Positions 7,583-17,409 of a stretch of DNA of 24,902 nt are shown here, in pieces. The notes under the pieces were generated by a model that had not been told where the DNA came from, made no database searches, and saw only the letters and a program-made list of their open reading frames with translations. The position numbers were made by a program, and so were the translations under genes. The stretch is from Spirochaetota bacterium (lineage in GTDB: Bacteria > Spirochaetota > UBA4802 > JAFGJZ01). The stretch's first letter is position 1. Each line of letters starts with the position of its first letter. The DNA lies in NCBI GenBank assembly GCA_041306665.1, contig JBFZEW010000400.1, positions 1 to 24,902 on the forward strand, given 5' to 3'.

Positions 7583-8299
7583 ATGAAATTCGTATGTCTG
7601 GTTAGACACGCCAAAGCAGAGAAAATCAAATCAGATGATTTCAGACGCAAACTCACAAACGAAGGAATACTTGAGGCTGAACTTCTGGGAAAAAGTCTGA
7701 AAAATGACGATTTTTTATGTGATCTGGTTATTTCAAGTAATGCTTCAAGAGCTCTTGAAACAGCTGTAATCATTGCAGAAACTCAAAATATAAAACAAAG
7801 GAAAATCCGGGTTGAAAATTCTCTTTATCAGGGAACAGGCATTGACACTTATTACAGACTGCTTAAAGAACTTGATAATTCCATCAATACTGTACTCATT
7901 TCAGGACATAACACGACATTAGACGCAGCAGCAAAAGACATGTGTCAGGAATATGACCGGCGATTAACTACAGCTGCCGCTTTCTGCATTGCGTTTAATA
8001 TTAGCAACTGGAATGAAATAACATCAGGAACAGGCACTGCATGTTTTTATAAATTCAATAAAAATAAAAACAAACTCGCAGACGATGAAAAGCGTTTCAT
8101 AGAAAATTTAAAAAACGAAACAACACTAAAAATTGAGAATATTTTCACGGACATAAATAAAACAATAATGTTTAACGACAGGAAAAACACAATAAATTCA
8201 ATTTTTAAAAGTACTGAGGAAATTTTTAAAAATTCTACAATAGTCACAATTCAGGATTTAACAATATTAAGAAATAATACGGGCATAAAAAATGAATAA
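7583..8299 (+). CDS. sixA: SixA-type phosphohistidine phosphatase with C-terminal extension
   Basis: Histidine-phosphatase motifs LVRHAKA, SSNASRALET and SGHN, plus about 75 extra C-terminal residues. Overlaps the ppk1 start by 8 bp. Confidence 0.82.
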   Translation: MKFVCLVRHAKAEKIKSDDFRRKLTNEGILEAELLGKSLKNDDFLCDLVISSNASRALETAVIIAETQNIKQRKIRVENSLYQGTGIDTYYRLLKELDNSINTVLISGHNTTLDAAAKDMCQEYDRRLTTAAAFCIAFNISNWNEITSGTGTACFYKFNKNKNKLADDEKRFIENLKNETTLKIENIFTDINKTIMFNDRKNTINSIFKSTEEIFKNSTIVTIQDLTILRNNTGIKNE

Positions 8300-10346
8300 T
8301 CATTTTATACCAAAAGAAATCAGCTGGCTGACTTTCAATGAAAGACTCCTCCAGGAAATGGAAGACAAAACAGTACCATTGATAAATAGAATTAAATTCA
8401 TGGGGATTTATTCCAGCAATCTTGATGAATTTTTTGAAGTACGGGTAGCTACTTTAAAAAGACTCGCGCTTCTCGGAAAAAAATCCGCTAAATTCATCAC
8501 TTATGATCCCAAAATAGTTCTTTCTGAAATCAATAAAATTGTTTTGAATCAGCATAAACGGTATGACAAATCATATGACACCCTGCTGAAAGAACTCGCG
8601 AAAAAAAACATTCACATAATAAATGAAAAAATGCTGAAAGGCAGTCACGAGGAATTTGTAAAAGAATATTTCAACTCCATTGTCCGGGCCCGGCTGTTCC
8701 CGGTTATTGTTGATAACCGTTTCAAATTACCTGCGCTTGATGACAGAGCAATTTACCTTCTGGTTCAAATGTATAAAAGCTGCAAACCGAATATGAAAAA
8801 ATACAGTCTAATTGAAATTCCTTCAGGCCAGCTGAACCGTTTTGTTATACTCCCGAAAATCAACCGCAAACAATATATCATTTTCCTTGATGATATTATC
8901 AGATATGGTTTGTCAAAAATTTACTCTTCTACAGGATTCGATTGTTTTGAAGCATGGGACATAAAAATTACCCGCGATGCTGAACTTGACATAAGTGATG
9001 ATTTTTCTGTAAGCTACATCCATAAAATCACAAAAAGTCTGAAAAAAAGGAAAGCTGGAAATCCGGTCAGATTGGGCTATGACGCCTCAATGCCGAAAGA
9101 AATGCTTTCGTTCCTTTTACGGAAAATAAAACTCACCGGCGAAGATACTGTCATAGCGGGCGGCCGTTATCACAATTTCAGGGACTTTATCGATTTTCCT
9201 GATCTTCTCCCTGAGAAAACAGACAAACCGAAACCGCCAATAAGACATAGAGACCTTTGTAACGCATCAAGCATAATAAATGTAATTGCAAAAAAGGATG
9301 TTCTGCTGAGCCTGCCATACCAGCCGTTCGATTATATTATTGATTTATTACGGGAAGCTTCTATCGATCCGAAAGTAAAATGCATAAAGATAACTTTATA
9401 CCGGATTGCAAAAATTTCTAATGTCGTAAATGCGCTGATCAACGCGGTCAGAAACAGAAAAGAGGTCATTGTTCTTTTAGAGCTTCAAGCCCGCTTCGAT
9501 GAAAAAAATAACATTCACTGGGCAAATGTTCTTCAGGAAGAAGGCGCAACCGTAATTTTCGGCATTGCAGGACTGAAAGTTCATTCAAAGCTCTGCATCA
9601 TTTCACGGGAAGAAAAAAATGACTCCATAAAACATTACTGTATTATCGGAACAGGAAATTTCAATGCAATAACCGCAAAAGTTTATACTGATCATTTTCT
9701 TCTTACATCTGACGAACGTATAACAAATGAAGTTCATCATATTTTTGAATTTTTCGAGAAAAACTATAAAGTTTTCAAATACAGGCATCTTCTGGTTTCT
9801 CCATTCACTGCCCGTGAAAAAATTTCATCCATGATTGATGCTGAAATGGAAAATGCATCAAACGGAAAACCTGCTTATATTGACTGGAAAATCAATAATT
9901 TTTCGGACATTGATATTATACATCAGCTTTACAAGGCAAGCAGAGCTGGCGTGAAAATCCGTCTAATAGTAAGGGGAATGTTTTCTCTTATTCCTGAAGT
10001 AGACGGTATGAGTGAAAATATCTCGGCACGCGGAGTAATAGACAAATATCTTGAACATTCAAGAGTTCTGTTTTTCTGCAACAATGGGAATGAATTATGC
10101 TACATTACATCTGCTGATATTCTTCCGCGCAATTTAAACTCCAGAATTGAAGTTGCATGCCCGATTTACAGCAAAGAAATCAAAAAAGAATTGCGCGATA
10201 TTTTCGAAATTCAATGGGCGGATAACGTCAAAGCCAGGGTTCATGATAAAGAGCAGAGTAACAATTATATTAAAGATGGAAACGTAAAAGTCCGATCACA
10301 AGAGGAAGTATATAACTACTTAAAAATTACGCATGAAGGAAAATGA
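8292..10346 (+). CDS. ppk1: Polyphosphate kinase 1
   Basis: Motifs KEISWLTFNERLLQE, SNLDEFFEVRVA, ELQARFDEKNNI, LKVHSKL (phospho-His), GTGNFN, YLEHSRV and SADILPRNLNSRIE. Confidence 0.97.
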   Translation: MNNHFIPKEISWLTFNERLLQEMEDKTVPLINRIKFMGIYSSNLDEFFEVRVATLKRLALLGKKSAKFITYDPKIVLSEINKIVLNQHKRYDKSYDTLLKELAKKNIHIINEKMLKGSHEEFVKEYFNSIVRARLFPVIVDNRFKLPALDDRAIYLLVQMYKSCKPNMKKYSLIEIPSGQLNRFVILPKINRKQYIIFLDDIIRYGLSKIYSSTGFDCFEAWDIKITRDAELDISDDFSVSYIHKITKSLKKRKAGNPVRLGYDASMPKEMLSFLLRKIKLTGEDTVIAGGRYHNFRDFIDFPDLLPEKTDKPKPPIRHRDLCNASSIINVIAKKDVLLSLPYQPFDYIIDLLREASIDPKVKCIKITLYRIAKISNVVNALINAVRNRKEVIVLLELQARFDEKNNIHWANVLQEEGATVIFGIAGLKVHSKLCIISREEKNDSIKHYCIIGTGNFNAITAKVYTDHFLLTSDERITNEVHHIFEFFEKNYKVFKYRHLLVSPFTAREKISSMIDAEMENASNGKPAYIDWKINNFSDIDIIHQLYKASRAGVKIRLIVRGMFSLIPEVDGMSENISARGVIDKYLEHSRVLFFCNNGNELCYITSADILPRNLNSRIEVACPIYSKEIKKELRDIFEIQWADNVKARVHDKEQSNNYIKDGNVKVRSQEEVYNYLKITHEGK

Positions 10347-11281: not shown

Positions 11282-11328
11282 ACTCTCGTCTGACTCTCGT
11301 CTGACGGCCAGTCAGACGAGAGTCAGAC
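11282..11328. repeat. 11-bp tandem repeat embedded in a perfect 18-bp inverted repeat (possible terminator)
   Basis: ACTCTCGTCTG x2 (11282-11303). Stem GTCTGACTCTCGTCTGAC (11288-11305) / GTCAGACGAGAGTCAGAC (11311-11328) with loop GGCCA, followed by an A/T tract. Confidence 0.9.
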
Positions 11329-11369: not shown

Positions 11370-11424
11370 TTGAAAAAAACATATATGTTAGTATATTTGT
11401 CCATAAGTGCAAATATACTAACAT
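11370..11424 (+). promoter_or_regulatory. ars promoter with ArsR operator
   Basis: TTGAAA (11370-11375)-N16-TATATT (11392-11397). A perfect 15-10-15 inverted repeat ATGTTAGTATATTTG (11385-11399) / CAAATATACTAACAT (11410-11424) covers the -10 box and the likely start site. Confidence 0.75.
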
Positions 11425-11450: not shown

Positions 11451-11816
11451 ATGGATTTCTACTTGAAACTGTTAAAATGCCTTGGAGATCAAACAAGGAT
11501 CAGAATTCTCAGATTATTGATGGAATCAAAACTTGAACTCTGCGTTTGTGAAATCGTGGATTCACTTCAGATTCCATTTTACAGCATTTCAAAGCACATT
11601 AAAGAATTAAAAAACACAGGGATTTTGTCTGAATCCAGAAACGGAACATTCATCATGTACTCCATTGCCAAGGATGAAAATGAATTTATTACTAAAATCA
11701 TCGAGTTGATAAAAACCATTCCCGATGAAAACTTTTCTAGTGACATTACTTTACTCAAAAAAAGATTGGCAATCAGGGAAAACGGAAAATGCACAATAGG
11801 TCTCATTAAAAAATAA
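11451..11816 (+). CDS. arsR: ArsR/SmtB family repressor
   Basis: LGDQTRIRIL, the alpha3 As(III)-type site ELCVCEI, HTH SISKHIKEL and a further C-terminal Cys; first gene of the ars cluster. Confidence 0.92.
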   Translation: MDFYLKLLKCLGDQTRIRILRLLMESKLELCVCEIVDSLQIPFYSISKHIKELKNTGILSESRNGTFIMYSIAKDENEFITKIIELIKTIPDENFSSDITLLKKRLAIRENGKCTIGLIKK

Positions 11817-11839
11817 ATACCTGCGTTCATGGAGATAAA

Positions 11840-13014
11840 ATGAATAATATTAAAAAATTTTTTGTTATAACCTCAGTATTTGCCGGATTTTTTTTCATTC
11901 CTTTTAATTCAATGCGCATAAGTAACGCGGTAATGGAAGCTTTATTCATGACTCAAGAATACGCTCGTGACCATATATTGCTATGTCTGCTTCCCGCTTT
12001 TTTCATCGCCGGCGCAATCGGAAATTTCATCAGTCAGGGAGCGGTAATCAAATTTCTTGGCGCAAAAGCAAATAAGTTTGTCTCCTACGGAGTTGCTTCA
12101 GTTTCAGGATCAATTCTCGCGGTCTGCTCATGTACAGTTCTTCCTCTATTCGGCGGAATTTACAAACGCGGTGCGGGTCTGGGTCCGGCGATTTCTTTTT
12201 TATATTCAGGTCCCGCAATTAATGTTCTGGCTATAATAATGACCGCCAGAATTCTTGGACTTGAACTCGGAATCGCGAGAGCAATATCAGCAGTAATCTT
12301 TTCAATTGTAATCGGAATTATGATGCATTTCATTTTCATCAAAGAAGAAAATGCCCGCAACAAAGAACTTGAAATGATGATTCCTGAAGATGAAAATTCT
12401 AGTGGAAGAAAACTTTGGCAGACCGCCCTGAACATTGCCGCGATGATCGGCATCCTCGTTTTCGTTAACTGGGGCAAGGATGAATCCATGCGGTTCTGGA
12501 ATGTAATCTATAATTTTAAATATCATATAACTGCAGTTTTCGCCGTTCTGCTAGCGGTATCATTTATCCTGTGGTTCAGAAAAGATGAAATGAAATCATG
12601 GGTAAAAACAAGTTTCGAATTTTCATTGCAGATTATGCCGCTGCTGTTCGCAGGCGTCCTTATTGCCGGATTTTTACTTGGCCGCCCCGGACATGAAGGA
12701 ATCATTCCATCCCAATGGATTTCTTGCTTGTCGGAGGCAACAGCCTTTTTTCTAATTTGTTCGCTTCAATCGCGGGAGCATTCATGTACTTCGCAACGCT
12801 TACGGAAGTTCCGATTCTGCAGGGATTGATCGGCAGCGGAATGGGCAAAGGCCCGGCGCTCGCGCTTCTATTGGCCGGTCCGGCATTGTCGCTGCCAAGC
12901 ATGCTGGCAATTCGGAGTATGATTGGAAATAAAAAAACTTTCGTCTATGTATCGCTTGTGATTGTCATGTCGACAATTACCGGAATGACATATGGCGCGC
13001 TATTCGGAGCATAA
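11840..13014 (+). pseudogene. arsP: ArsP-like (DUF318/COG0701) permease split by a 1-nt frameshift near 12724
   Basis: The N-terminal part has AVCSCTVLPLF and FLYSGPAINV. The C-terminal part (LVGGNSLFSNLFASIAGAFMYFATLTEVPILQGL..GMGKGPALALLLAGPALSLPS) is in the -1 frame. Adding one T at TCT-TG-CTT restores a 391-aa ORF. May be a sequencing error. Confidence 0.8.
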
Positions 13015-13015
13015 C

Positions 13016-13504
13016 ATGTCATCTGTTATAATTCTTGCCGCATTTACATTTATCTGCCTGATAATTTCATTTTTTTCAGACAGGGAGAAAACCGGTATTG
13101 CATTAAAACGCGCAGCTACAATGCTTTTAAATCTGCTGCCGCCTTTTTTTACAATACTGATTCTCATAAGTCTGATTTTATATTTAGTGCCTCAGAGTTA
13201 CATGATTAAAATTTTCGGAAAAGAATCAGGCATAACAGGCATGATCCTTGCTGCAGCTGTAGGTTCAATATCACTAATACCCGGATTTATTGCATATCCG
13301 CTAAGCAGTATATTAATCAAAAACGGCGTAAGTTATTCCGTAATTGCTGTTTTCATCACAACACTCATGATGGTAGGTATAGTTACAATACCGATTGAAA
13401 GAAAATTTTTCGGAATTAAAATTACATTGATGCGTAATGGTTTAAGTTTCGCAGGAGCTTTGCTCATTGGCCTAACAATGGCAGTCCTGTGGAGTGTTAT
13501 ATGA
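13016..13504 (+). CDS. Half-size DUF318-like permease subunit A
   Basis: 162 aa from ATG 13016 (GGAG at 13006-13009, a better start than the track's 12992). Multi-TM with the motifs GSISLIPGFIAYPL and TIPIERKFFGIK. Confidence 0.8.
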   Translation: MSSVIILAAFTFICLIISFFSDREKTGIALKRAATMLLNLLPPFFTILILISLILYLVPQSYMIKIFGKESGITGMILAAAVGSISLIPGFIAYPLSSILIKNGVSYSVIAVFITTLMMVGIVTIPIERKFFGIKITLMRNGLSFAGALLIGLTMAVLWSVI

Positions 13505-14061
13505 AACAGTTTATTAAAAAAAATAAATTCGATTTAATGCTGCTTTTTTCGTTTATCACTTTCATCATATATTCACATTTAGTAAGTCACGCAGCCGGGA
13601 TCGAAATTGGAAATAATTTCGGAAAATTTTTCGTTGAAATGATAACATTTATTCCACTGATCTTCATTTTAATCGGGTTATTCGATGTATGGATTTCAAA
13701 GGAAAAAATTCAAAAACATATCGGGTATAATTCCGGAATTAAAGGCTCATTCTGGGTAATACTTCTTGCAATGCTTCAGGCCGGTCCGCTGTACAGCTCC
13801 TTTCCAGTCGCATATATCTTATGGAAAAAAGGAGCAAGCATCAGGAATATATTTATTTACCTTGGAGCATTTTCGACATTAAAAATTCCCATGCTTGCTT
13901 TTGAAATTACCTATCTCGGCCTCAAATTTTCACTACTGCGGACATTTATAACATTACCCGTTTTTATAATTATCGCACTAATAATGGAAAAAATATTAGT
14001 TATTACAGATTTCCGGGTTACAGATCCGGGGAAACAGGAGAAAAATAATGAACAAAATTAA
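13501..14061 (+). CDS. Half-size DUF318-like permease subunit B
   Basis: 186 aa from ATG 13501 (ATGA overlap with the previous stop, GGAG just upstream). Multi-TM with the motifs [11 protein letters not shown] and [13 protein letters not shown]. Confidence 0.8.
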
Positions 14062-14479
14062 AGTTTTATTCGTTTGTATTCACAATTCAGCGAGAAGCCA
14101 AATGGCGGAAAAATTTTTAAATGAACTTGGCGGAGAGAAATTCGCAGCTGAAAGCGCGGGCATCGAGCCGGGAGTTTTAAATCAAACTGTTGTTAAAGCA
14201 ATGATGGAGGCAGGATACGACATATCCGGTAACGCGACTAAATCTGTTTTTGATGTTTTTAAATCAGGAAAAACTTATGACTATGTTGTTACAGTGTGCG
14301 ATCCTGAAGCTGCAGAAAAATGTCCGCTCTTCCCCGGAATTGTTAAACGTGAACATTGGGGATTCAAAGATCCATCTTCATTCAAAGGCACAGATGAAGA
14401 AAAACTGAACTTTACAATAAAAATCCGCGATGAAATTAAAAGCAAAATTCAAGAATTTATTAAAAATACTGAGGAATAA
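14048..14479 (+). CDS. arsC: Thioredoxin-coupled (LMW-PTP-fold) arsenate reductase
   Basis: P-loop [14 protein letters not shown], resolving Cys pair [13 protein letters not shown] and HWGFKDP. Confidence 0.93.
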
Positions 14480-14481
14480 AA

Positions 14482-15546
14482 ATGGCAAAAGGAATTTCAT
14501 TTTTTGAAAAATACTTAACAGTCTGGGTCATGCTCTGCGTCGCGGCTGGGACATCTTTAGGAATATTTCTTCCGCAGATTCCCGTCTTTCTCAGCAAAAT
14601 GGAATACGCGCATGTTTCCATTCCGGTCGCGATTCTAATATGGCTTATGATTTATCCAATGATGCTTAAAATTGATTTTACTAGCATTGTGAAATCCATA
14701 AAACAACCAAAAGGACTTGCCATTACATTAACGACAAACTGGCTGATTAAGCCGTTCACAATGTTTGGTATTGCCTGGCTGTTTTTTTTCATAATCTTCA
14801 AACCATTTATATTGCCGGAAAACGCGAAGCAGTATCTCGCGGGAGCAGTGCTGCTCGGAGCCGCGCCGTGCACGGCAATGGTATTTGTATGGAGCTATCT
14901 GACAAAAGGAAACGCGGCATACACACTTGTTCAAGTCGCGGTAAATGATTTAGTTATTCTAATCGCGTTTGCACCCATTGTCGCTTTTCTGCTCGGATTA
15001 AGCGATATTATTATTCCTTTCGACACATTACTCCTATCCGTTCTGCTTTTCGTGGTTATTCCGCTGACTTTAGGATATTTAACGCGAATATGCATTATTA
15101 AAATGAAAGGCGAGGAATTTTACAACAACAGGTTTGTGCCGAAATTCAACGGAATTACGATAGCTGGATTGCTTGCAACGCTTATCATAATTTTTTCTTT
15201 TCAGGGCGAAACAATACTTAACAATCCTTTAGCAATTATTCTTATTTCAGTTCCATTAATAATACAAACATTCTTTATTTTCTACATGGCTTTTTTATGG
15301 GCGCGATTCTGGAAACTTCCTCATAGTATTGCCAGTCCAGCAGCAATGATCGGTGCCAGCAATTTCTTTGAACTTGCTGTTGCAGTAGCAATTTCATTGT
15401 TCGGATTAAATTCAGGCGCAACTCTTGCAACTGTTGTCGGTGTACTTGTCGAAGTCCCGGTGATGCTCACTCTAGTAAAAATTTCTAACAACTCAAAACA
15501 TTGGTTCAGTAAAGAAGTACTCGAAATGGCTGGAATTGATAATTAA
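14482..15546 (+). CDS. acr3: Acr3 family arsenite efflux transporter
   Basis: Motifs FFEKYLTVWV, GAAPCTAMVFVWS, GASNFFELAVAVA and VLVEVPVML. Confidence 0.95.
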   Translation: MAKGISFFEKYLTVWVMLCVAAGTSLGIFLPQIPVFLSKMEYAHVSIPVAILIWLMIYPMMLKIDFTSIVKSIKQPKGLAITLTTNWLIKPFTMFGIAWLFFFIIFKPFILPENAKQYLAGAVLLGAAPCTAMVFVWSYLTKGNAAYTLVQVAVNDLVILIAFAPIVAFLLGLSDIIIPFDTLLLSVLLFVVIPLTLGYLTRICIIKMKGEEFYNNRFVPKFNGITIAGLLATLIIIFSFQGETILNNPLAIILISVPLIIQTFFIFYMAFLWARFWKLPHSIASPAAMIGASNFFELAVAVAISLFGLNSGATLATVVGVLVEVPVMLTLVKISNNSKHWFSKEVLEMAGIDN

Positions 15547-15590
15547 ATATTTCAACAGCCAGATACATTACACAAAAAAGAGGAATTATT

Positions 15591-15821
15591 ATGATAATTA
15601 AAATTTTAGGAAGCGGATGTCCGAAATGCAAACAGCTTCAGGCGAACACAGAAAAAGCCGTACAAACTGCCGGCATTAATGCGACTATCGAAAAAGTAAC
15701 AGATATGAAGAAAATAATGGATTACGGAGTAATGATGACTCCCGCTCTTGTTATTGATGAAGTTGTAAAATCATCCGGTAAACTGCTGACAGCTGATGAA
15801 ATTCAGAATTTTTTAAAATAA
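15591..15821 (+). CDS. Small thioredoxin-like protein (TM0996/MTH895 type)
   Basis: IKILGSGCPKC CxxC motif and YGVMMTPALVIDE; 76 aa; GAGG SD. Confidence 0.9.
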   Translation: MIIKILGSGCPKCKQLQANTEKAVQTAGINATIEKVTDMKKIMDYGVMMTPALVIDEVVKSSGKLLTADEIQNFLK

Positions 15822-16261: not shown

Positions 16262-16549
16262 ATGAGGGAAATTTTGAATAAACGAAAGGACATGGAATGC
16301 AGAGTTGGATGCGGAGCATGCTGCATTGCTCTTTCTATCAGTTCGCCATTACCGGGAATGCCAAACGGAAAAAAGGCAGGGGAAAGATGTATTAATCTGA
16401 AGAATGATTCAACCTGCAGTGTTCATGGAACTGATTTTTATCCCGAGGTCTGCAGAAATTTAACACCGCAAAAAGAAATGTGCGGTAGAAGTTTTGAAGA
16501 AGCTATGAATTATCTGAGCATACTGGAAAAGCTGACAAAACCTGATTGA
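16262..16549 (+). CDS. YkgJ/UPF0153 family Cys-cluster (CxxxCxxCC) protein
   Basis: CRVGCGACCIALSISSPLPGMPNGKKAGERC...C...C...C. The ATG at 16292 (MECRVGC) is an alternative start. Confidence 0.88.
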   Translation: MREILNKRKDMECRVGCGACCIALSISSPLPGMPNGKKAGERCINLKNDSTCSVHGTDFYPEVCRNLTPQKEMCGRSFEEAMNYLSILEKLTKPD

Positions 16550-16576
16550 CTCTTCCCTGGCCGGAGACTGTAAATT
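16546..16576 (+). promoter_or_regulatory. MerR-type long-spacer promoter
   Basis: TTGACT (16546-16551)-exactly 19 nt-TAAATT (16571-16576). The spacer CTTCCCTGGCCGGAGACTG is GC-rich with a weak TCC-N6-GGA dyad. It lies 30 nt upstream of a MerR-family gene. Confidence 0.8.
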
Positions 16577-16605
16577 TTCATTATACCATCAAGGAGAAAA
16601 CCTAA

Positions 16606-17409
16606 ATGTATTCAATTGGTGAATTTTCTTTAATTACAAAGCTTTCTGTTAAAACTCTCAGACACTACCATACTGAGAATATTCTTGATCCTGATTACAT
16701 CGATGAAGATTCAGGCTACAGGTATTACCGTGAAGCATCAATTCAAAAAGCTGAAATGATAAAAATGCTTCGCGACCTGGAATTTTCCATAAGTGATATC
16801 AGAGAAATTACCGAAAAATTTACCGACGACTCCGAGATTCTTCCGTATCTTAATTCACAGAAAGAAAAAATCAGAATGAAACTCGAAGAGTATGAAAAAA
16901 TTAATTTTTCCCTTGAAAGTATAATTAAAAACGCAGAGGAGAGAAAAATGAAAAAATCCTATTCAGACAAAGTTGTTGATAAAAATATCGGCGATTTTAT
17001 TTTTGCCGGCTACCGCTTCAAAGGCAGATACGATGAAGTCGGAAAAGCATTTTCAAAAATCGGGAAAGCCGCCGGCCGCTTTATAAACGGCAAAGCAATG
17101 TCGCTTTACTATGATGGAGAATACAGAGAAAGCGACGCGGATATTGAAGGCGGATTCCCTCTTAAAAAGGAAATCAGCAATCCGGAAATAAATTGCCGTG
17201 TTCTGAAAGGCGGTAAAGCGGCAACAATCATACATTCCGGTTCATATGACACATTAAGCGAGTCCTATAAAAAACTGTTTAATTATATTGAACAGAATAA
17301 AATTAAAACAGATCTTCCGGCACGGGAAATTTACATTAAAGGTCCGGGAATGATTTTCCGCGGCAATCCGGAAAAATATGTTACTGAAATTCAGATAATG
17401 TTTAAATAA
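16606..17409 (+). CDS. MerR family regulator with C-terminal GyrI-like ligand-binding domain (BmrR/EcmrR type)
   Basis: N-terminal YSIGEFS..LSVKTLRHYH...DSGYRYY, a coiled-coil linker, then a GyrI-like domain (ATIIHSGSYDTLSESYKKL, AREIY, YVTEIQI). Confidence 0.93.
   Translation: MYSIGEFSLITKLSVKTLRHYHTENILDPDYIDEDSGYRYYREASIQKAEMIKMLRDLEFSISDIREITEKFTDDSEILPYLNSQKEKIRMKLEEYEKINFSLESIIKNAEERKMKKSYSDKVVDKNIGDFIFAGYRFKGRYDEVGKAFSKIGKAAGRFINGKAMSLYYDGEYRESDADIEGGFPLKKEISNPEINCRVLKGGKAATIIHSGSYDTLSESYKKLFNYIEQNKIKTDLPAREIYIKGPGMIFRGNPEKYVTEIQIMFK

Follow-up and report, generated by a model that had tools for sequence, protein, structure and literature searches.

A conserved pair of half-size, cysteine-poor ArsP-superfamily proteins in an ars operon of a Spirochaetota bacterium: a probable two-subunit permease

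ArsP, the permease of Campylobacter jejuni for methylarsenite (MAs(III)) and roxarsone(III) (Rox(III)), exports these two compounds and neither As(III) nor pentavalent species (PMC6205960). Genes for ArsP are located in ars operons beside acr3 and arsC, and a CSC motif is the hallmark of the family (PMC4435449; 10.1101/2022.07.06.499078). The Cu/Zn efflux protein SO_0444 and SaoE (CD2367) represent further branches of full-length proteins, whose defining feature is a CSC (in some cases USC) motif (10.1101/2022.07.06.499078) and occur in metal or metalloid efflux contexts. Single-repeat topologies with four transmembrane segments (TMS) also exist in the ArsP family according to a table footnote (PMC7176098); this footnote was the sole trace of a half-size pair in the literature on ArsP-type permeases, in which no description of the pair was found. 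Here we analyze two adjacent genes, permA and permB, in an ars operon of a Spirochaetota bacterium (contig JBFZEW010000400.1, 24,902 nt, hereafter the window). Their products affiliate to the same Pfam family as ArsP, share its helix-bundle repeat and are probably the subunits of a membrane permease that is obligately heteromeric, in the simplest case a heterodimer, and falls into the ArsP superfamily (PF03773, TC 2.A.119). In the following, A and B denote the two proteins together with their homologs. Families in the window were called with Pfam and NCBIfam profiles.

13016..13504, + strand: permA, 162 aa, single-repeat, Cys-poor half-protein of the ArsP superfamily
13501..14061, + strand: permB, 186 aa, single-repeat, Cys-free paralog of permA

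The start of permA is most likely at 13016, one base past the arsP stop, and not at 12992, since the resulting length of 162 aa agrees with the database protein. The stop codon of permA overlaps the start codon of permB in an ATGA at 13501-13504, and neither translation contains a CSC motif: permA carries the sequence LIPGFIAYP and one cysteine, permB has no cysteine at all. Both features had already been read correctly in the preliminary description of this DNA. The same description had proposed a search with PF03773 for each half. With HMMER, permB reached 47.7 bits, whereas permA obtained 29.6 bits (E 5e-7) and stayed slightly below the cut-off of 32.3. Each protein aligned solely with positions ~9-138 of the 294-position profile. 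Homologs of permA in the database carry a precomputed PF03773 annotation and, together with the hhalign comparison of A with the N-terminal repeat of ArsP (E 1e-11), this led us to place both proteins in PF03773/TC 2.A.119. They differ from ArsP in several respects. Neither protein has two 4-TMS repeats per polypeptide (4+4 or 4+N+4); each consists of one repeat, the two being encoded by two genes, and the C(S/T)C motif of the transmembrane helix is missing from both. The homology to SO_0444 and SaoE is distant, and the NCBIfam models of these branches were matched by neither A nor B.

The lack of conserved cysteines is a property of the families as a whole. The alignment of 78 A sequences contained no conserved Cys column, and in that of 82 B sequences no conserved Cys was found at the CSC position; the sole Cys column of B at or above 30% (30/82) lies away from it. 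The mean number of cysteines per sequence is 0.79 in A and 0.74 in B. In contrast, the full-length ArsP proteins of the same loci retain C49, C96 and C98. Since no cysteine is conserved in A or B, a substrate would not be bound through the vicinal-thiol CSC site of ArsP, SaoE and SO_0444.

AlphaFold modeled each of the two proteins as one unit of five long helices, with a predicted local distance difference test (pLDDT) value of 84 for B and 74 for A. The helix breaks in these models coincide in B with two invariant motifs, QAGP and K-x-P, and in A with the SLIPG motif, and the conserved polar positions of B (E46, Q93-G-P-L-Y, K110, N116, K128-x-P, E135 and R147) are located at helix breaks. 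Judged from the models, such breaks would be as expected of the substrate site of a secondary transporter. Full-length ArsP has two helix bundles and each subunit one, so that a complex of A and B would restore the arrangement with two repeats. The distribution of lysine plus arginine (K+R) over the loops was also inspected. In the 78 A sequences it peaks in the loop between transmembrane helices TM0 and TM1 (5.1), and in the 82 B sequences at three places, the N-terminus, the TM1-TM2 loop and the TM2-TM3 loop. An opposite loop bias is typical of paired homologs that insert in antiparallel orientation.

The gene arrangement carries the proposal of a common function. In all 80 loci fetched from GTDB genomes, A immediately precedes B in the same orientation, and in 77 of them the stop of A and a start codon in the frame of B overlap by 4 nt, like in the window; an A-only or B-only locus was not present among the 80. 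When 1.84 billion cluster representatives were searched by profile, 1055 B-like proteins were retrieved (79 at E <= 1e-30), nearly all of half size. Among the natural variants, P0292 (332 aa; L118 6001-6999), found on three contigs, is a fusion of both halves: residues 10-160 are permA-like (38% identity, E 2e-27) and residues 196-318 permB-like (41% identity, E 2e-33). Other seemingly fused B reading frames of 257-383 aa were rejected, as their over-extended starts run over A. Co-occurrence, fixed order, coupling and a fusion, by which an obligate half-transporter pair is recognized operationally, were all observed. The fixed order, the near-universal coupling and the Rosetta-stone fusion provide strong genomic evidence that A and B act as one unit, in agreement with the preliminary description, and on this basis the formation of an A-B complex can be anticipated with good confidence.

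Half-size proteins of this kind are known from unrelated families. The short-chain chromate transporters Chr3N/Chr3C in relation to long-chain ChrA, EbrAB of the SMR family, and SemiSWEET in relation to SWEET are half-size proteins encoded by adjacent genes, which are needed together and rebuild the two-repeat fold of the fused relative. Some paired half-size transporters act in the efflux of oxyanions or toxic compounds. For A and B, these systems are analogies only, and the heterodimer proposed here is deduced from the genes.

Half-size transporters can also homodimerize, e.g. SemiSWEET, and A and B might accordingly be separate homodimers with independent functions, or accessory subunits that pair with full-length ArsP. 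The genomic neighborhood was surveyed over ±6 genes wherever both flanks reached at least 4 kb (46 loci), with neighbor clusters named by Pfam. Full-length ArsP was near A/B in 63% of these loci, and in 17 loci it lies directly upstream of the pair, which would suit accessory subunits. In the remaining 37%, L026 among them, full-length ArsP is missing from the neighborhood. Neither half was ever seen without the other, order and 4-nt coupling are kept, and nature has fused A to B. Separate homodimers or ArsP accessories are therefore very improbable.

B-like relatives occur in at least 585 GTDB species, as counted with one genome per species and the permB alignment as query. Among the matches listed are Spirochaetota, Bacteroidales, Ignavibacteria, Elusimicrobia, Syntrophales, Dehalococcoidia, Clostridia, Chloroflexota and Methanosarcina, with identities of 55-70%. 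At E <= 1e-3, 1257 database clusters were found for permA and 2121 for permB, essentially all of them proteins of 150-200 aa from uncultured anaerobes. Plasmid carriage amounted to five distant matches (35-46% identity) in 72,556 plasmid records. The conservation of the sequences points to strong purifying selection on A and B. Each of the two reading frames is about half of a full-length ArsP, and the adjacent arsP is frameshifted (see below), which could suggest that a full-length permease gene has been broken and that permA and permB are its decaying pieces. Conservation effectively refutes this explanation: both frames are intact, the stated identities hold between phyla and even between domains, dozens of residues are invariant, and the two-gene format is kept in 80/80 loci. 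Moreover, both halves resemble the same, N-terminal, repeat, which speaks against an origin from the two halves of one gene.

The relation to ArsP was further resolved with hhalign. A and B are the nearest partners of each other (E 9.5e-14). A aligned with the N-terminal repeat of ArsP at E 1e-11 and with the C-terminal repeat at E 2e-6, and the corresponding values for B were 5e-8 and 3e-3. The two ArsP repeats, in turn, are nearest to each other (E 4.4e-16). Because A and B are closest to one another, as are the ArsP repeats, the pair did not arise by fission of a CSC-type ArsP. Judged from these alignments, it is a separate old lineage that was duplicated at the gene level. The adjacent ArsP consequently makes a weak partner for the comparison of split and fused forms which the preliminary description had seen in this operon.

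The neighborhood of A/B is rich in genes of arsenic metabolism. Besides ArsP, the neighbors comprised ArsR (52% of the 46 loci), a CcdA-like protein with a DsbD_TM domain (46%), a thioredoxin-like protein of 150 aa (41%), an ArsE-like Thioredoxin_3 protein (35%), Acr3 (30%), DGC (28%), ArsC (24%) and an ArsM-like methyltransferase (13%). By these counts, A/B are enriched beside arsenic genes, and the link to metalloid operons assumed in the preliminary description was borne out. The ArsR-ArsP-A-B layout of the window is repeated in the loci L001, L013, L014 and L016. L026 contains the order ArsR-A-B-ArsC-Acr3 without ArsP, and L025, L059 and L083 the order A-B-ArsC. In 13/83 loci a cupin-like protein of ~103 aa adjoins A/B (e.g. 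L056 9215-9526 and L016 10496-10807). It has the conserved sequence IPPCKM..DVLFY..GEG, gave no significant Pfam match and is absent from the window.

Similar neighbors are known from described arsenic determinants. Genes for CcdA, thioredoxin and redox-disulfide-2 proteins were noted as ars determinants in 2010 (PMC2963123). In P. mercurii ND132 an operon ArsR-ArsP-ArsE-DGC is induced by arsenic, and the strain made putative thioarsenicals (10.1101/2022.10.17.512643). These clusters, i.e. operon C of ND132 with its Thioredoxin_3-type ArsE and the CcdA/thioredoxin/redox-disulfide-2 determinants, share the neighbor vocabulary of the A/B loci; the half-size pair is not mentioned in the portions of both descriptions that were searched.

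Part of the wider family is fused to iron-sulfur domains. A C-terminal Fe-S domain was detected in 21 of the 150 best B-like representatives (the 4Fe-4S ferredoxin domain Fer4_13 in 10, PF04060 in 11); the Fe-S-fused proteins, among them P0287, P0297, P0298, P0301, P0309, P0339 and P0340, form a sister group. Upstream of the gene of P0309 (loci L119-L121) lies an A-like gene that overlaps it by 4 nt; the P0309 gene also adjoins a Crp/Fnr regulator, with no ars genes near. The fusion P0292 is accompanied by MerR and MarR regulators and likewise by no ars genes. These contexts indicate that the two-gene family at large extends beyond arsenic and is partly tied to redox chemistry. The Fe-S-fused forms of B also hint that redox coupling is involved and that B has its C-terminus in the cytoplasm.

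A different function has also to be weighed. A/B might be a redox-linked membrane module and no arsenical exporter, with CcdA/DsbD-type conduits, thioredoxins, and DGC or ferredoxin-like proteins as its partners. Such a module might transport a thiol or some other small molecule with redox activity, or might link transport with reduction, and would reside in ars operons because the ArsR regulons of anaerobes also cover thiol stress. In line with this explanation, the redox set (DsbD_TM, Thioredoxin_3, DGC and the 150-aa thioredoxin-like protein) was present in 70% of the 46 loci, and the arsenic genes proper (Acr3, ArsC or the ArsM-like methyltransferase) in 50%. The 21 Fe-S-fused representatives point in the same direction, as does the B-Fer4 protein with its coupled A-like partner and Crp/Fnr neighbor. 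The window itself offers less to this view: permB lacks both cysteines and an Fe-S domain, arsC and acr3 follow directly downstream, and the operon lacks CcdA and DGC, the ArsE-like protein being its single member of the redox set. The status of CcdA, thioredoxin and redox-disulfide-2 genes as recognized ars determinants (PMC2963123) also means that the two explanations are not independent of each other. We consider a redox-linked module rather unlikely, yet the most serious of the alternatives.

Several observations weigh against a paired permease acting in the arsenic response. At the level of the proteins, permA remained slightly under the Pfam gathering threshold, permA and permB fitted no model in the NCBIfam search, and no solved relative was found by sequence, with a best Foldseek match against the PDB of E 3.8. 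The K+R bias differs between A and B and is not self-consistent, so that it does not fix their relative orientation, parallel or antiparallel. At the level of the loci, the redox neighbors are commoner than the true arsenic genes (the 70% and 50% given above), 9/46 of the well-flanked loci have no ars or redox neighbor at all, and the fusion P0292 and the Fe-S-fused relatives are situated in non-ars contexts. Furthermore, A/B of L015, L023, L062 and L074 stand behind genes for an ABC ATPase, an FtsX/MacB-like permease and a LolA-like protein. In these four loci a protein of 424-430 aa without Pfam match is encoded directly upstream of A/B, and no Acr3, ArsC or ArsM-like gene lies within ±6 genes; L015 has full-length ArsP, DGC and DsbD_TM nearby, and L062 has ArsR and DsbD_TM.

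The operon of the window comprises seven genes on one strand (11451-15821) with intergenic gaps of -14 to +44 nt. Reading frame coordinates and the Pfam and NCBIfam assignments support the order arsR-arsP-permA-permB-arsC-acr3-trx as it had been proposed from the sequence. In addition to permA and permB, the following features were recorded:

11288..11328, + strand: terminator-like hairpin, a perfect 18-bp inverted repeat (18 pairs, 10 of them G-C) with a 5-nt loop, GTCTGACTCTCGTCTGAC GGCCA GTCAGACGAGAGTCAGAC, between a YjbR-family gene and arsR
11370..11397, + strand: candidate sigma-70-like promoter, TTGAAA-16-TATATT, 10/12 matches, with arsR 54 nt downstream
11451..11816, + strand: arsR, ArsR/SmtB metalloregulator (HTH_5; NF033788 71.4 bits, cut-off 55)
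11840..12724, + strand: arsP, N-terminal part, 295 codons (ArsP_1 150.9 bits, profile 6-202; 71% identity to the ArsP of L001)
12716..12730, + strand: -1 frameshift site of arsP, ..TGGATTTCTT^GCTTGTCGGA..
12727..13014, + strand: arsP, C-terminal part, 95 codons in the -1 frame, second repeat, MYFATLTEVPILQGL..., GC 0.50
14048..14479, + strand: arsC, arsenate reductase of the low-molecular-weight-phosphatase (thioredoxin-coupled) type, overlapping the end of permB by 14 nt
14482..15546, + strand: acr3, arsenite efflux permease (TIGR00832 382.6 bits, equivalog cut-off 282.8)
15591..15821, + strand: trx, 76-aa thioredoxin-like protein with a CPKC motif, MTH895/ArsE family (Thioredoxin_3)

The hairpin is the upstream boundary of the operon and is unusually long and perfect for a terminator-like element. 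Promoter-like sites around arsR were not more frequent than expected from shuffled sequence, and the site at 11370-11397 is thus listed as a candidate only. The translation of arsR shows the motif ELCVCEI at the position of the classical, R773-type As(III) site. ArsC contains the LMWPc domain (62.3 bits, cut-off 23.2), and the CX5R loop and two more cysteines are visible; with 117.8 bits and a cut-off of 174.3 it fails the pI258-type equivalog TIGR02691. The trx product scored 99.8 bits with PF13192 and 110.3 bits with TIGR00412 (cut-off 62).

The full-length arsP adjacent to permA is of the 'cluster 1' type, with PF03773 covering both repeats (profile 6-293) and with the motifs DHILLCLLPAFFIAG and LAVCSC. 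The N-terminal motif of this cluster has been defined as H-x-(L/I)-x-C-x-x-P-A-x-F-I-A-G (PMC4435449). The translation of the arsP in the window contains AVCSCTV and with it the CSC motif that the preliminary description had noted, and the protein also matches the NCBIfam models of SO_0444 and SaoE weakly. The same description had called ArsP fused; it is not one intact reading frame, since in this assembly a -1 frameshift splits the profile over two frames. The open frame of the N-terminal part continues as nonsense up to 12829. The C-terminal part (ArsP_1 85.8 bits, profile 204-293, in the reading frame 12715-13014) is otherwise undamaged and 88% identical to the ArsP of L001. A tblastn comparison with this intact ArsP of 389 aa located the shift near 12722-12727, between ..PSQWIS and LVGGNS.., and it looks like the loss of one T from TCTTTG. 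It may be a real mutation or an assembly error: no public contig spans 12491-12742, even at 80% likeness, so that the public contigs do not separate the two. The locus is present in five soil and sediment metagenome runs at a word depth of 2-4. Over 12776-12900, a highly conserved and GC-rich stretch, dozens of contigs from other arsP genes of the same soil metagenomes map at 80% likeness and raise the depth to 30-50; here pieces of different genomes could be joined in metagenome assembly. The stretch 12743-13226 is nonetheless supported by near-identical independent contigs.

The GC content of arsP also bears on the origin of the pair. The window has a mean GC of 0.357, permA 0.360 and permB 0.330, and the N- and C-terminal parts of arsP have 0.409 and 0.497. 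The half genes had been described as more AT-rich than arsP and as separately acquired. The contrast with arsP is real; it is arsP, however, that is the GC-rich outlier, whereas permA and permB stand at background. In the 17 loci with arsP directly upstream, arsP exceeded A and B in GC nearly everywhere, whatever the GC of the genome, and its C-terminal part did so above all. As the pattern recurs across 17 genomes, it reflects a composition intrinsic to the proteins and no mark of separate acquisition. The arsR-arsP-A-B block is moreover collinear in other genomes at ~69% nucleotide identity, as is arsP-A-B with metagenome-assembled genomes (MAGs) of Spirochaetota. Horizontal acquisition of A/B as judged by GC was consequently rejected.

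These results touch the interpretation given in the preliminary description, according to which ArsP and Acr3 are both active and the separately acquired pair adds a third exporter, with pentavalent, thiolated or other organo-metalloid species as substrates. The family-wide absence of the CSC thiol site fits a substrate other than a trivalent thiophile, and A/B are associated with ars genes. The host is an anaerobe, and thioarsenicals form in anoxic sulfidic settings. Putative thioarsenicals were produced by ND132 (10.1101/2022.10.17.512643). Separate acquisition is contradicted by the background GC of the pair, by its collinearity with arsP elsewhere and by the family-intrinsic GC pattern; no datum favors any particular substrate, and the frameshift of arsP makes three export routes under one ArsR doubtful in this assembly. 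In this form, the interpretation is unlikely.

The paired permease remains the best supported interpretation. permA and permB are translationally coupled and would be co-transcribed with arsR, arsP, arsC, acr3 and the gene of the ArsE-like thioredoxin from one ArsR-controlled promoter. They belong to a conserved module of ArsR, CSC-type ArsP, A and B, which in anaerobes accompanies genes of arsenic detoxification and thiol redox. From this company, a role of A/B in arsenic or thiol stress is reasonably probable. The permease would move a solute tied to such stress, most likely outward, and this solute would differ from the substrate of the CSC-type ArsP. To name a specific substrate would be a guess. 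In a wider and more speculative proposal, which we put forward tentatively, A/B would be widespread and so far undescribed Cys-free two-subunit transporters of the ArsP superfamily in anaerobic bacteria and archaea, handling species within ArsR regulons that are outside the range of the known ars transporters, e.g. thioarsenates or another arsenic or sulfur compound that does not bind thiols, and the Fe-S-fused relatives would then suggest redox-coupled transport.

The surroundings of the operon in the window are ordinary chromosomal genes, i.e. those for NAD synthase, PFK, polyphosphate kinase, DinB_2, YjbR and a MerR/GyrI-like regulator, of which the DinB_2 and YjbR genes are the upstream neighbors. 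No integrase or transposase, and thus no sign of a mobile element, was found in the flanks. Just past the operon, the region 16262-17409 encodes a 95-aa CxxCxxCC protein (PF03692), putatively metal-chelating, and a regulator of the MerR type whose ligand-binding domain is GyrI-like. The polyphosphate kinase (8292-10346) is 53-56% identical to proteins of Bacteroidales/Rikenellaceae MAGs, and the arsP-A-B block (11840-14061) is nearest to Spirochaetota MAGs, with ~69% nucleotide and 64-70% protein identity. Taken by itself, the kinase would tentatively suggest a Bacteroidota-like soil anaerobe as the host. This mismatch of affinities may reflect a transfer of the whole block between phyla.

The arsenic transporters ArsB, Acr3, ArsP, ArsJ, ArsK, ArsG and AqpS have been worked out mostly in aerobic or facultative organisms. 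The A/B pair, which databases label as 'permease' and nothing else, recurs in ars and thiol-redox clusters, and its relatives extend over at least 585 anaerobic species including methanogens. For the study of how a two-repeat fold is built from two genes, the fusion P0292 is the natural comparator of the split A and B, and the adjacent ArsP the weaker one. If it is true that A/B moves arsenic species of anoxic sulfidic settings, the pair would supply a missing piece of arsenic cycling under anaerobic conditions, as in paddy soils, sediments and digesters.

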